A stretch of DNA of 64,000 nucleotides from Eledone cirrhosa (GCA_964016885.1 OZ024742.1:144398001-144462000), one strand, 5' to 3'. Shown: positions 4,540 through 62,075, numbered from the stretch's first letter. Numbers and translations: made by a program. Notes: generated by a model not told the origin, from the letters alone.

Positions 4540-4590
4540 AGATTCTACAGGACTAGAACTGTTTCATTCTTTAGAAATCATCAGGAATCT
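4540..4590 (-). ncRNA. Type I hammerhead ribozyme motif (family C)
   Basis: Minus strand agattc-CTGATGA-tttc taaa gaat-GAAA-cag ttctagtc ctg-TA-gaatct; all three stems pair; in a ~100 bp island between two (TA)n tracts. Confidence 0.75.
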
Positions 4591-7000
4591 GTGGTTACCT
4601 CCGATTCAACCCGGAATAACGTATATATATATATATATATATATTGTAAACGGGCATTATTATTATTAATGTTATTATTATTATTATTCTCTACACTCCT
4701 TACATCAAACTAAAAATATGTTGACAATCTTTTAATAATGTCTTCCTTGTGAATTTTGTGGTCTTGTTTTGCTTAACTAATGAATATATATATATATATA
4801 TATATACACTCATATATATATACACTCATATATATACATGCACACACACACACACATATATATACATACATATATATATATATGACAGCCAGAAATAGAG
4901 AGGTGCACGAACTTTCTTTTTGGATGAAGCGGACATCCAAACGCGCGCATCTAATAATGACATCTGCGTATTGCGGTTAATGTATCTACGTTGGAACTCA
5001 TTCGGCTAATCTTCTTCTTTCTCTCTCTCTCTCTCTCTCTCTCTCTCTCACTCTCTCTCTCTCACTCTCTCTCTCTCAAATTCTCTTTATCACTCTTCGT
5101 CGCTTTCATTATTAAAAAGCTGTGTGTGTGCACGCGTGTTTTGAGGTACACTTAGATGAGGAGACGCACGACACAGCTTCCCTCTTTCCTAAACGAAACA
5201 TGCGATAACACGCAAGTTGCTAAACATACAAAAATACTAATATATGACTCATGTCTACAATCACACATACATATACACACAATTACATTAATTAATAAGT
5301 ATTATCTTTATAATTTTAAATATACCTGTATGTATCTTTCTATCTATATTTTCATATATATGTATGCATGTTTATGTGTGTAAAAATACATGATGCAGCT
5401 AAAACCCATTTGCGCTAATTGGAATTAAAGTAATTTGAATAATACTGATGTTTTAAATATGTATCTATAACAACTGAAGTTATGTATGTATCTCTCTCTC
5501 TCTCTCTCTCTCTCTATATATATATATATATATATATATATATATATAGAGAGAGAGAGAGAGAGAGAGAGAGAGAGAGATTTGCACTCATACACACACA
5601 TGATGGACAATACACCAACTTATAGCTGAGAAGCGCGTATATTTTATGCGTCTATTGTCGGTGAAAGGTGATAATTGTTTGCATGTATGCACGCACGAAA
5701 AAATATATATATTACTGATAATTCTAAGTTAGATCTTTTCTTTCTTCTTGCTTTCATATATATTTGCCTTGTTTTGATTTGCTTTTTAATATAGGCACTG
5801 ACTAAAACTGCTTCTTCAGCATGGCAAAGGCTGAGACTCTAGGTACCGATCAACATGCTAGAAATAGCAATTGAAATCCTCTCAGATGACTCTCATATCG
5901 TCTTAAACAACGCATAACACACATAGGATATGTAGTTTTTTAATATATGTCGGAAATTACCACTGGATGGTCACGATTGGAATGCATTTGTTTATAGGTC
6001 AACTCGATCAGATTTTATGGCTAAAATCAACACAACTGTTTATTCGTTTTTTTTTTTTTTTTCAGCGAGCTTACGCGGGAGCCTCCTAGAAACACCAGCC
6101 AAACATCTTTCCAATTACATCCTAACATCTTAAAGAAATGGAAGGATGAGTTGACCTGGAGCTAAACAACAGCAATTTCTTCGGGATTTATATATAATAT
6201 ATAAATAGGAACTTCTAGTCTGTTCACTGAGTTAGTTATTCCTGTGTGTCACATACGCACAGTAGCGCGCGTAGTTTTGTAGCTATGGTAAGTAGGCCGA
6301 GTAAAAAGGTTTATTTATTTCCGATATGTGCTAAACCCTCTAGTTTCACGTTGCTAGTGTTACGTTGATACAGAACTATTAGATTGTGATGATGGTGGTG
6401 GTGATGAATAATGATGAATATAAGTCATTTATTATATTTAATTAAAACCGATTAACTCCACCATTTAAGAACTACTCAGCAGCATTCTCTTTCACACAAA
6501 CACGTATTCTACACTTTCGCTCAAATACAAACACATCCACGCACACTCACGAATATATTATTTCAGACAAAAACACACGCAGACACCAGACACACACACA
6601 CACAAACACCTAAATGTGTGACGTAACAGAATCTGGATGTTTCCATTGGTCAATATTTCTGCGGTGACTCACCTCTTTACTCGTGATGATGGAGATGATG
6701 GTCGTGGAAGTAGTAACAATCGTGATGACGACGGTGATGGCGTTAGTGGAGAAGGCGTGAAGATTAGTTTTTCCTAAAATGCCGAGAAAAGGCGTGGATA
6801 CGCAAAAATGGAGAGTTGCTAGCTAGCCTTTGCACCATTTGTTTCTTAATTCTTTGTCACTCAGAATATATTTATATACTTACACACACACACACATATA
6901 TGTATATATATATATATATGTGTGTGTGTGTGTATATACATATATATATATATATATATATATATATATATATATATATATATATATATATATATATATA

Positions 7001-7151
7001 GGAACGAGTAGGACCCCAGAATTAGCCGTCGAAACGGCTTGAGCTCAGCCGTCGGGGTCCTACTCGTTCCTATTACCCACTCTACTACCCTAAGTATTGA
7101 GTACTTTGGTGCGTTATGGTCCACCTGGTTCCTTACCACATTTCCTTCGTT
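7001..7151 (+). mobile_element. Short (TA)n-flanked fold-back element (family D), 3' half of a hammerhead motif
   Basis: IR 6998-7017/7054-7073; GAAA-cggct..agccg-TC at 7031-7053; near-identical to the reverse complement of 50514-50650. Confidence 0.75.
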
Positions 7152-7666
7152 ATATATATATATATATATATATATATATATATATTTGTGTATGTGTCTG
7201 TGTGTTTATATATATACACAGAGACACACACACACAAACAAGCATTTATAAGAAAGAAAAACACTTTCGGCAATGACTGACCATGAGTTTTCACCGGGAA
7301 ATTCCCCTCCAAGGTGGAATACCAGCAGTCCATACATATTGGTCAGTCCTCCCACATCACTATTGTTGTCTCAGGGAGAGGTAACAGCTGATACAGTTTA
7401 GCACCAGGCTCACCGTAACACCTAAAAAAAAAAAAAGAGAAAAGAAAAATCGGACTGGAGCAACGTCAAAAGAAGTGTCTTGCTGCAGGACACATGTCGC
7501 CCGGTCTGAAAATCCAAGTCACAACCCTTCGGTTGTGAGCCCAACATCCAAACCCACACAACCACTCATCACACCAGCACACACACACACACACACACAC
7601 ACACACACACACACACACACACACACACACACACACACACACACACACACTCACGCCCACATAACA

Positions 7667-7840
7667 ATTGTTTCTACTTTTGGCACAAGGCCAGCAATTA
7701 CTCCAGTACATCACTGGTGCTTTATTTTATCGACCCCCGTAAGGAATAAAGGCAAAGCTAAACTCGGCGGGATTTGAACTCAGAACGTAAAGGGCCATAA
7801 CTCTATGCTGCAACGCATGGTGTCTGACGCTTCATGGATT
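7667..7840 (-). mobile_element. tRNA-derived Nin-domain SINE copy
   Basis: Reverse complement carries B box gagttcaaatcc, the gcctttcatcc..ggggtcgataaa core and the ggccttgtgcc..agaaac tail. Confidence 0.8.
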
Positions 7841-8320
7841 CACGCCCAGTCTGTCTTCCTCTATTCCCCTATCCTACCTTTTCCATGCCTCCGTGTTATT
7901 TTTCTTTGCACGTTGAACTATAGACCAACTATTCTTTTGCTTCTGCCCTTTCTATATATTTCTCCTTTCGCTAAACTACCACGCACTGTTTCAATTTCCC
8001 TCTTCCATTTTAGTTGATGCATTTTGGTTTATAATAATTTTTTTCCGTCTACATTTGTTTAAATCGACGAAAGGTACAACTCGTCCTCTATCTACCCGTT
8101 GTTTTGTTGCGTCCCAATGTTCACTGGAATGAATAGTAACAACCTTGATGCACTGAAACTATAATGATTTCCAGAAGTTATCTTTGTCCTGTGGGCCCAC
8201 TGTTTTATTATATATGATATATAATCTAAACTATAATAAAGTAAGGAGCGCGGGACTGCGTACTGTTTATAATTGTTTATCCCATTAGTAAAATAAGTTG
8301 GATTACTTTGAATAAATAAT

Positions 8321-59970: not shown

Positions 59971-60039
59971 ATGTATGTATGTATGCATGTCAGGTTAGAT
60001 TACCCGTAAAACTTTGTTAATAAAACCAAATGCTTTCAT

Positions 60040-61650
60040 GACAGCTTGAAGGTTTGGGCAAATATTCTCAACATAGTCCCTGGAATATTGGTGTGGTGGT
60101 TTTCAAAATAATTGGGCAGCTTTAATTAAATTTTCAGTACCCACCATGTAGTTTCCAGTTATTGTCTTCCTGTTTCTTCTACAACAACTACAACGGTACG
60201 CGATGGGGCCCACCCACAGTCCCGACGGACAGAATGGAGATATTGGTGGTATCATTTCAGAGCCAATCAAAGTTAAAAATAGTGTTAAGCAGGGTGATCT
60301 CATGGCTTCTACTCTTTTCTATATATATTTCTCTGTTTGATGCCTTTAGGGATTCTATTGAAGGAATTCTCATCAGATATCGCTCCCATGGAAAACTTTT
60401 CAACTCCAGCCGCTTTGCTGCAAATATTAAAGTCATCCAAACTCTCATTCACGAACCTCTTTACGCTGATGATTGCGATCTAGCTGTCCACTCACTCGCA
60501 GATATGCACAACGTCATGAATAGAATATCTTGTTCATGTAAAGCCTTTGTATTAACCCTGGTAATGTTTAAACCTGCATTGGCTGGGATCTCCTTATATT
60601 GAACCATCCATTTTCGTAAATGTTAAAAAAAACTCAAAGTAGTCTATAAGTTTCCTATCTGGGAAGAATCATTAACTAGTATTTGCTCATTAGATGATGA
60701 ATAGCTTCCCTTATCAAAAAAGCAAGCAATTCTTCCTCATGTCTTAGGGCGCGTCTTTGGGGCCGGAATGGAGTTAGAAAAGAGATAAATATTATAGTAT
60801 ACAATGCACGTGTTCTGTCTATTCACTTATATTCCTGTGAGATCTGGGTTGTCTATAGTAGGCACATTAAAATCCTCGAACGATTTCACCAGCGTTTCCT
60901 GCGTGATATTCTCGGAATTCACTTGAATACACACACAACACTGAACTATTACAAAGTACAGGTTCCGTGAGCATTGAAGCTTACATCCACAAAACCCGAC
61001 TCCAAAGGGCAGTATTAGATCTGACGTCAGCAGAATCCGAAAGCAAGTTCTTTATGGCGAGTTGATACCTGGGGCAAGACCACAGCACAAACCAAAGCTG
61101 CCTGTCAAAGATTGTGTGAAAGACTCCTTAATACAGTGCAAAATCGATTCATCTCACTGGGAGATCATAGCATTAGATAGAAACAAATGGCACACTGGTA
61201 TATTTAATAGTGTAAGACATTTTCAGAAATCTGCTTCGGAATGGGCTAGCATTAAATGTGAAGAGAAGAAAGGTCGGTCTGTGGAGATCTCTGAACTTCA
61301 GTTTATATGTGGGTGGATATGTCCGTCAAAACCTGGCCATACAAGTCACCTACGTAAGCATGAAGAAATGCCAAAGGTCATATGCGACCAATTCCTTGCA
61401 GCCAATATGACATGAGGTACATATCGCTGAGAATTTTCAAATAAGTCAGGACTTACAAGGCATTCAAGAACATATATTCGTGGTCCAGATCAGACTAAAG
61501 AGCCGAATGATGTAAGGAGTGAATTCCATTGCATTTTGTGCAACAAACTATGCAAGTCTTTAACAGGCTTTAAAAGCCACTATAGGGCTCAAAACCAGTG
61601 ATATATATTATTTGTCAATGATGATCTTACTCATCTAACGAGATGACGGC
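60040..61650 (+). mobile_element. Decayed RTE (BovB-like) LINE
   Basis: VKQGD, LFSIY..EGILIRYRSHGKLFN, LYADDCDL, LYGEL.PGARPQ, ALDRNKW, terminal CxxC..KS..G.KSH fingers; many frameshifts. Confidence 0.85.
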
Positions 61651-61678
61651 TATATATTGATATATGTGTATATTTATA

Positions 61679-61779
61679 CTGGGTATCCGACCAAAAATGT
61701 ATACACACTTTGATTACCTGTACAGGCAATATTTACCAGAATGCTGTTGAAGTGTGTATACATTTTTTGGGACACCCTA
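61679..61779. mobile_element. Tc1/mariner-type MITE (~100 bp)
   Basis: TIRs gggt..aaaaatgtatacacactt / aagtgtgtatacattttt..accc; TA flanks. Confidence 0.7.
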
Positions 61780-62031
61780 TATATATATATATATATATAA
61801 GCACAATAACAACAAACACATATAAACACACACTAGTAAAGATAGAATACATTAACCGATACAGAGTCACCCAATCACGAACACACATCAAACAAAACAC
61901 TATACTCACACGCAAACGCAGGCGTAAAGAAGACAAAATAAAATAAACAAACAAACAAATAAATAAATAAATATATAAACAGACTAAATAAAGATGGCGT
62001 AGACATACAATGTAACGGGAGGAAACAATAG

Positions 62032-62075
62032 TACCACTGACGATGTTGCAGTTGTGCAACGAAAGAACTTTGATA
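62032..62075 (+). ncRNA. Minimal hammerhead motif (family F), slightly decayed
   Basis: tacca-CTGACGA-t gttgca gttg tgcaac-GAAA-gaac-TT-tgata; within a 480-bp island bounded by (TA)n. Confidence 0.5.

Follow-up and report, generated by a model that had tools for sequence, protein, structure and literature searches.

Among described systems, the closest to the elements treated here are Penelope-like elements (PLEs) and retrozymes. As far as the available text and supplement of Craig 2021 (PMC8557442) extend, PLEs of the Hydra clade carry canonical hammerhead ribozymes, are almost all inserted in (TA)n, include one element from Octopus and, where tabulated, measure about 1.1–3.0 kb in all; the same source gives inverted 5'-truncated PLE copies with a one-sided tail of 30–40 bp, and Penelope-13_HM, in which such an inverted copy leaves a hammerhead on each strand. 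Inverted pseudo-long-terminal repeats and 3' extensions are standard PLE features (Goubert et al. 2022, PMC8969392, in its available part), and pairs of opposite-strand hammerheads 100–700 bp apart were reported earlier, most metazoan motifs being ascribed to truncated PLEs (Cervera and De la Pena 2014, PMC4209133, likewise). Animal retrozymes are tandem repeats in the accessible parts of the relevant papers (Li et al. 2026, 10.64898/2026.07.22.740005; Cervera and De la Pena 2020, PMC7229834). The present work concerns a 64,000-nt stretch of Eledone cirrhosa DNA (GCA_964016885.1 OZ024742.1:144398001-144462000; hereafter the window), AT-rich animal DNA dense in microsatellites, and the (TA)n-flanked fold-back elements in it that bear type I hammerheads. 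An earlier note had taken these for a diverse population of inverted, non-autonomous retrozyme-like elements mobilised in trans. Their status as a population of their own is not supported: the best-preserved host is a 5'-truncated Hydra-clade PLE insertion, which can be explained without mobilisation in trans, although for the shortest copies such mobilisation may have occurred. With a probability that we put at roughly 80%, the fold-backs are insertions of several PLE families, the main hammerhead family being a Hydra-clade PLE, laid down by a proposed head-to-head joining; the pattern is a further example of a published type of PLE insertion and not a new system.

Hammerhead motifs in the window

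The core word CTGANGA occurs 31 times on the two strands against about 26 expected, so that by itself the word shows no enrichment. Under an initial strict type I descriptor, tested with 200 shuffles per setting, three full motifs appeared against 0.02–0.09 per shuffle; the descriptor was then relaxed in its stem II and stem I rules, after the motifs had been inspected, and returned eight motifs, whereas 300 local dinucleotide shuffles gave 0.15 on average and never more than 2. The eight belong to three independent families, and none of the 300 shuffles reached three: family A has cores at 29545 (−), 33606 (+), 36718 (−), 36873 (+), 43531 (−) and 45934 (+), family B at 4584 (−) and family C at 29059 (−). 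At each of these sites the type I features (CUGANGA and GAAA core, stems I–III, NUH cleavage site) are present, full motifs are more frequent than in shuffled controls and, judged by sequence, the hammerhead motifs are real. About a dozen such motifs had been proposed, in at least five sequence families; 8 of the 12 sites pass, three more are degenerate or weak, and four families were found. The site at 50607, proposed as a variant, is no hammerhead, having no CTGANGA core on either strand. The site at 60376 (−), where GAAA follows a core within a fragment of another retroelement, failed the descriptor and was also rejected. The Rfam listing, dominated by microsatellite-driven microRNA matches and uninformative here, gave only a weak Hammerhead_HH9 match at 4530–4604 (16.3 bits, E 0.07, below the gathering score of 52), no hammerhead match at 45880–46030 or 50520–51174, and no hammerhead among the matches listed for the whole window (150 of 215).

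The association with (TA)n, which the earlier note had described for most motifs, largely stands. A (TA)5+ run lies at most 250 nt downstream of 9 of the 12 hammerhead or degenerate sites, compared with 17% of random positions and only 1 of 18 non-ribozyme CTGANGA words, in a count where the sites in pairs are not independent; the exceptions include the pair at 18.1 kb, which is 353 and 1228 nt away. Outward-facing inverted arms are likewise seen at 9 of the 11 sites that remain from the original list, the cores at 4584 and 62037 having no clear inverted arms.

A probable truncated Hydra-type element at 43.3 kb

The best-preserved host, E43, opens on its left with a tail of about 105 nt (43323..43427, −), which the alignment of six arms and the flanks place on this arm only and which runs into (TA)n at 43303–43322. 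The left arm (43428..43667, −) is an inverted 5'-truncated copy of the element's 3' end, 96.7% identical to 45793–46037, and carries a type I hammerhead at 43473..43539 (−; predicted cut after 43481). Exactly at the inversion junction begins the C-terminal fragment of a Hydra-type GIY-YIG endonuclease (43667..43888, +), followed by a 3' untranslated region (UTR) at 43889..45792 (+) that is 77% AT, non-coding and multi-copy along its length, with a longest stop-free stretch of 54 aa and an old internal duplication of about 540 bp. The right arm (45793..46037, +), the tail-less 3' end of the long copy, meets (TA)n at 46038 and contains the second type I hammerhead (45926..45992, +; predicted cut after 45984). 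The order along the long copy is thus a stop codon, about 2.1 kb of non-coding DNA and then a ribozyme near the 3' end, on the same strand as the endonuclease fragment.

The endonuclease assignment comes from a 75-aa frame (43664–43888) that matches the protein P0015 at 42% identity over 62 aa (E 3.2e-5, with 1.84 billion proteins searched). In the reverse direction, tblastn with P0015 yields one significant match in the window, at this locus (E 5e-10; the runner-up has 0.35), and the end of the left arm, 43667, is also the start of the match. P0015 is nameless; it was judged Hydra-type by eye against alignments in the available supplement of Craig 2021 (PMC8557442). The window copy has the CxH, E and N positions and a decayed CxxC; other copies, in public read set X6, differ at 43700 (28 of 30 reads), 43760 (20 of 22) and 43764 (18 of 22), and these variants restore a conserved W and the CxxC motif. 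Only the endonuclease ends of PLEs survive in the window, and the regions of RWK, DKT and the CxCX5C linker are absent from the E43 copy. The statement that most hosts have no coding capacity was therefore misleading for the 43.3 kb host, which retains the last 60 or so codons of a PLE endonuclease. From the endonuclease fragment at the junction, the UTR and the same-strand ribozyme, E43 is read as a 5'-truncated Hydra-type PLE to which a copy of its own 3' end is fused in inverted orientation; because the 3' UTR alone takes up about 2.1 kb, the full element would exceed 4 kb.

Like Hydra-clade PLEs such as Penelope-13_HM and Hydra-1_Obim, family A, to which E43 belongs, has a C-terminal GIY-YIG domain ending CxxC..E..N..CxH, a type I hammerhead in sense orientation close to the 3' end, its stem III short and palindromic, insertion into (TA)n, and an inverted 5'-truncated copy that puts ribozymes on both strands. 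It differs from them in its 3' UTR, its tail of about 100 nt and its long stem II with an internal mismatch, and the Hydra-1_Obim ribozyme is unlike that of family A. The minimal metazoan PLE hammerheads (PMC4209133, in its available part) resemble those of the window in having many divergent families per genome, mostly without coding sequence, an extra base before stem II and a palindromic stem III, whereas stem I of family A is 8 bp and some pairs here are 2.4–4 kb apart.

Shared and one-sided ends of family A

Two further elements belong to family A. E29 (29361..33716) lies between (TA)n runs and has a left tail at 29361–29454, arms at 29455–29926 and 33263–33711 that are about 85% alike, and hammerheads at 29488..29553 (−; predicted cut after 29496) and 33598..33663 (+; predicted cut after 33655), both with a partly decayed stem II. 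E36 (36513..36973) is a miniature fold-back, with a 98% palindrome at 36618–36973, a tail confined to the left side, where the edge is approximate, (TA)n confined to the right, and hammerheads at 36661..36726 (−; predicted cut after 36669) and 36865..36930 (+; predicted cut after 36922); it is not alignable with the others upstream of the conserved 3' end. The interior of E29 holds a short interspersed element (SINE) piece and a nested long-terminal-repeat (LTR)-type element of 2.5 kb (30345–32870), with 395-bp direct repeats 95% alike and no long Pfam-matching frame between them.

In E29, E36 and E43 alike, the tail-less arm ends at one common internal position and passes into (TA)n, and a homologous tail of about 100 nt is restricted to the opposite arm in the alignment of six arms; five of the six family A ends adjoin (TA)n. 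Arm lengths vary (178, 240 and about 470 nt), as do the inner junctions. In these three, as in the ribozyme-free elements at 33.8, 50.5 and 51.2 kb described below, the 5' end of a 5'-truncated copy adjoins a second, inverted copy that is itself 5'-truncated. Within the ribozyme, stem I and the core are constant across the three family A elements (15 of 15 and 19–20 of 20 positions), whereas stem II is identical at only 13–24 of 31 positions yet keeps its pairing, three pairs being altered on both sides.

These ends bear on a more ordinary origin, in which the arms are terminal inverted repeats (TIRs) of DNA transposons or of miniature inverted-repeat transposable elements (MITEs), generic fold-back duplications triggered by (TA)n, or assembly artefacts that include ribozymes incidentally. 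Ribozyme-free palindromes at (TA)n are common in the window (9045–9224, 16457–17010, 17180–17744), which such an origin would account for. The family A ends, on the other hand, are asymmetric in one and the same manner across three elements, the arms are unequal in length and diverged (85–98% alike), left-right joints recur in independent reads and contigs, and PLE-type endonuclease pieces stand at the inner junctions of three elements. The fixed, symmetric ends of TIRs are not what was found, and the one-sided tails largely refute the TIR reading; we consider this whole group of origins very improbable. Many (TA)n-flanked fold-backs in the genome would then be retrotransposon ends that automatic tools could call MITEs.

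Proposed insertion mechanism

In the available part of a study of a Poseidon PLE in vitro, the protein nicks both strands of AT-rich DNA and extends them, reverse transcription begins at two RNA sites with the stretch between them forming the tail, and ribozyme mutants still insert (Frangieh et al. 2024, PMC11167929). Applied to the window, a source element with a reverse transcriptase (RT)–GIY-YIG frame and a hammerhead near its 3' end would be transcribed, although the window itself holds only the endonuclease tail of such a frame. The endonuclease would nick both strands of (TA)n, as the in vitro work and the flanks here suggest, and reverse transcription would start from each nick at one of the two RNA sites, giving one tailed and one tail-less complementary DNA (cDNA). 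Both cDNAs would end early and be joined 5' to 5', so that two 3' ends with hammerheads face outward into (TA)n. Of the two-site priming, what is observed is the one-sided tail and the common internal boundary; of the joining, the variable junctions and the endonuclease fragment that begins at one of them. The arm/tail boundaries of family A, of the 51.2 kb element and of the family at 50.5 and 7.0 kb fall at TA-like words in the element, so that short pairing with the (TA)n target is a plausible means of priming.

The ribozymes need not act in insertion, since ribozyme mutants still insert in the cited experiments. They are probably passengers of the 3' end, selected in source elements where tandem copies can supply a second ribozyme, and probably inactive in the fold-back copies. 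The two-start-site model from the in vitro work predicts exactly the tail asymmetry observed, and the tails are two to three times the reported length. Many copies sharing an arm/tail boundary would constitute a natural data set on PLE inverted ends and tails.

Against the head-to-head 5'-truncated PLEs available from three sources (PMC8557442, PMC11167929, PMC8969392), the elements of the window agree in their outward 3' ends, one-sided tail, variable junction and AT-rich target, and depart in a possible preferred 5' boundary and in tail length: the measured tails are 42, 83, 95 and 106 nt, of which three exceed the published 30–40 bp. The departures from the searchable literature are quantitative, namely the 3' UTR of about 2.1 kb, tails of 83–106 nt in three of four cases and the possible 5' boundary. 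Family A represents at least one undescribed family of the known Hydra clade, although the families may already be filed in Repbase; literature searches for a separate fold-back class found nothing closer than the PLE and retrozyme papers cited. A repeat annotation of Octopus vulgaris lists 31 recently active Penelope-like families in a main text that, where available, is without hammerheads (PMC13282606), and the families described here might already be in its supplements. A derivation of family A from the 3' end of an Octopus Naiad marked 'HHR_half_core' was rejected, the endonuclease here being C-terminal and the short motifs of families A, B and C not being found in the Craig 2021 supplement (PMC8557442), whose long sequence lines are incomplete.

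Several observations weigh against the assignment to truncated Hydra-clade insertions. The Hydra call for family A rests on about 60 residues; the other five of the six matches in that protein search, long or repeat-rich, were set aside as chance, three of the five sequences having been inspected; a word-based protein search with the endonuclease fragment returned no match, and Atlas gave no family for it. E43 is the only hammerhead host that keeps coding sequence, and no RT was seen in the window for any hammerhead family. Hydra PLEs are generally below 3 kb in the available source, whereas a full family A element would exceed 4 kb, and both its 3' UTR of about 2.1 kb and the tails of 83–106 nt are longer than published. 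The stem II covariation comes from only three elements, and its support is modest because the double changes all lie in one of them. For families B and C and the motif at 62 kb, the tie to PLEs consists of anatomy and ribozyme style. Finally, in the public reads described next, depth falls abruptly 5' of the ribozyme and the best-supported joints cluster, unlike random truncation. The claim that the hammerheads are tied to Penelope-like machinery and to (TA)n is supported.

Copies in public reads and a possible short RNA

Four public DNA data sets (X1, X5, X6 and X7) were compared with 43323–46037 at 80% likeness. As these are reduced-representation libraries with summed contig depths, no copy number is claimed, and since the best data sets share only 34% of sampled words they may come from a close species or a different individual; no RNA run was among the data sets listed. 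The terminal 270 nt, with the tail and ribozyme zones, are 41–49 times deeper in two raw-read runs than the median of 22 body bins, and the body of E43 is covered throughout by divergent copies and is multi-copy, as expected from 5' truncation. Left-right arm joints number 58, at varied positions, in independent reads and contigs (the best 15 of the 58 inspected); short fold-backs are therefore both common and variable. A pile-up of read ends at 43429–43432 was left unused because of a possible enzyme site in reduced-representation libraries.

A different account of the abundant 3' ends, and the main rival to the truncation reading although compatible with it, is that the dominant unit is a discrete RNA of about 270 nt (hairpin, hammerhead, spacer, tail) from the 3' end of a Hydra element, transcribed alone and copied in trans. 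Of the best 15 of the 58 joints, seven enter the right arm at 45868–45880 and six leave the left arm at 43585–43594; these are mirror positions, 55–65 nt upstream of the core. In run X6, summed depth drops about 6.6-fold (930 to 140) at the cluster point and then settles near 20. Moreover, the fold-back point of E36 is 77 nt upstream of its core, each arm is able to form a hairpin starting near the joint cluster, and non-autonomous PLE derivatives are known (MRC1; vertebrate retrozymes). The depth step would, however, also arise from subfamilies that share the conserved 3' end and fall below 80% likeness upstream, and joints can be called only where both sides align, which biases their position in the best 15 of 58 inspected. 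Each copy folds a hairpin upstream of the family A core, but no structure common to the subfamilies emerged (consensus energy −0.34), and RT pausing or snap-back at a hairpin could produce a hot spot too. The short RNA thus remains a tentative alternative. Stated in full, and with the same reserve, the proposal would be that an undescribed Hydra-type PLE with a 2-kb 3' UTR gave rise to a non-coding RNA of about 270 nt with a fixed 5' end, copied in trans and inserted head-to-head into (TA)n. If so, this RNA would outnumber its parent about forty-fold, a SINE-like, non-tandem counterpart of retrozymes; a true fixed 5' boundary would mean that a short RNA with a ribozyme exploits a Hydra element and does so without tandem arrays.

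An unlikely reading: the fold-backs as retrozyme-like units

The retention of a ribozyme motif in both arms, hence two in each element, and the compact, non-coding form of E36 as a 98% palindrome could suggest that the whole fold-back is a retrozyme-like element, its two ribozymes processing its own RNA for replication. Non-LTR retrozymes share with the present elements the type I hammerhead, short non-coding units and an origin from PLE terminal repeats. Published animal retrozymes are, however, same-strand tandem repeats that yield circular RNA (in the available parts of the retrozyme papers cited above), and no same-strand hammerhead pair was found within any element of the window. Because the motifs lie on opposite strands, a transcript would contain one sense ribozyme, with no excision of a unit and no dimer in cis. 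The predicted fold of E36 pairs 66 of 66 ribozyme bases with the upstream arm (−275 versus −151 kcal/mol for separate folds), 41 of 52 ribozyme bases of the 18.1 kb element are predicted to pair with the opposite arm, and the predicted minimum-energy fold of the family A copies is never the ribozyme fold. E43, in addition, keeps a coding remnant. Given the strand arrangement and these predicted folds, a retrozyme cycle of the fold-backs is unlikely, and we give it little weight beside truncated PLE insertion.

Ribozyme-free fold-backs and GIY-YIG elements

Two other elements in the window carry GIY-YIG sequence, and the earlier note had them share the geometry of the hammerhead hosts; inverted arms are indeed present in both, but they have no hammerhead and no arms in common with the ribozyme families. 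The first (33838..34967, +) is a 5'-truncated PLE with an inverted copy of its 3' UTR on the left, reaching (TA)n at its left end only; its GIY-YIG domain at 34196–34675 (Pfam PF01541, E 3e-5) is C-terminal, the relatives of the protein carry RT upstream, and the short linker and inner CxxC resemble the Nematis rows by eye, with a different linker spacing. The closest named relative of one window protein is from Octopus bimaculoides (58% identity). A DUF7041 (gag-like) frame at 35131–35697 (+) begins just past the cut-off 3' end of this PLE. The second element (51189..53557, −) is a 5'-truncated, PLE-type copy with a one-sided tail of 42 nt, inverted arms 99.6% alike and (TA)n on both sides; about 65 codons at 52543–52740 are GIY-YIG-like by language-model resemblance only, the enclosing frame having no Pfam match and the protein homologue search being empty.

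Neither element contains an exact hammerhead core on either strand or any DNA common to families A–C. As partners of family A they were rejected on the absence of shared DNA and of any match between their relatives and E43. Inward-facing hammerhead-like remnants occur at the outer ends of both (33838–33875 and 51246–51290); the near-motifs at 33856 (+) and at 51251 (+)/53536 (−) were not counted, one being a 3' half only, cut by (TA)n, and the other having a core mismatch and no stem I.

The site listed at 50607 belongs to a ribozyme-free fold-back between (TA)n runs (50515..51174, −) with a one-sided tail of about 80 nt. A second copy of its family (7000..7150, +) has a 17-nt inverted arm that ends at the identical arm/tail boundary. 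Just inside the arm end of this family lies a GC-rich hairpin whose loop is GAAA (TTCG in the complementary strand) at 50596–50663, 51107–51174 and 7016–7069; Rfam gave no match for it, and it may be an RT start or binding signal of the family.

Families B and C and the motif at 62 kb

The family B hammerhead (4540..4590, −; predicted cut after 4546) occupies a 99-nt piece, 4523–4621, between two (TA)n runs. A head-to-head fold-back of the same family at 18112..18222, which does not adjoin (TA)n, bears two degenerate hammerheads (cores 18163, −, and 18171, +); these sites, at 18121–18215, are decayed copies of the 4540 family with stem I broken and, in one, GAAG for GAAA. A further degenerate copy, additional to the sites first listed, lies at 37170..37250 (−; core near 37246) and runs into (TA)n at 37096–37169. 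Family C forms a fold-back at 28925..29344 between (TA)n runs, with a whole hammerhead at 28973–29066 (−; cut predicted after 28980) and only the 3' half of the motif in its right arm (29174–29235). Another small inversion (28 nt, 100%) lies past that arm, at 29241–29344; it begins at (TA)n and faces inward. By eye, stem II of families B and C has the T..T flanks of many Hydra ribozymes tabulated in the available part of Craig 2021 (PMC8557442).

The weak hammerhead at 62032..62075 (+) has a good stem II and poor stems I and III, passes the loosest setting only (0.97 expected by chance), and lies in a 480-nt piece, 61800–62279, between (TA)n runs. No endonuclease remnant was found near family B, family C or this motif.

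Other repeats in the window

A chain of ribozyme-free palindromes at 16457–17817 is centred on or ends at (TA)n, with one pair 100% alike (16689–16800 and 16899–17010); these palindromes could be recent fold-back duplications or assembly artefacts. Other short ribozyme-free fold-backs lie at 62438–62473 and 62824–62859, 9045–9224, 47133–47202 and 43118–43175, two of which are close to (TA)n. A non-Penelope element also shows inverted pairing: at 40017–42667, the zf-RVT-bearing 3' region of a long interspersed element forms a large fold-back with arms of about 950 nt, 78% alike, and (TATC)n-type borders. An apparently intact non-LTR retrotransposon with (TATG)n flanks at 55438–58539 (−) has a 1033-aa frame with RT and zinc-finger domains, and its decayed relatives lie at 23037–25377 and 47520–47864. 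The common SINE of the window presumably resembles an octopus SINE.

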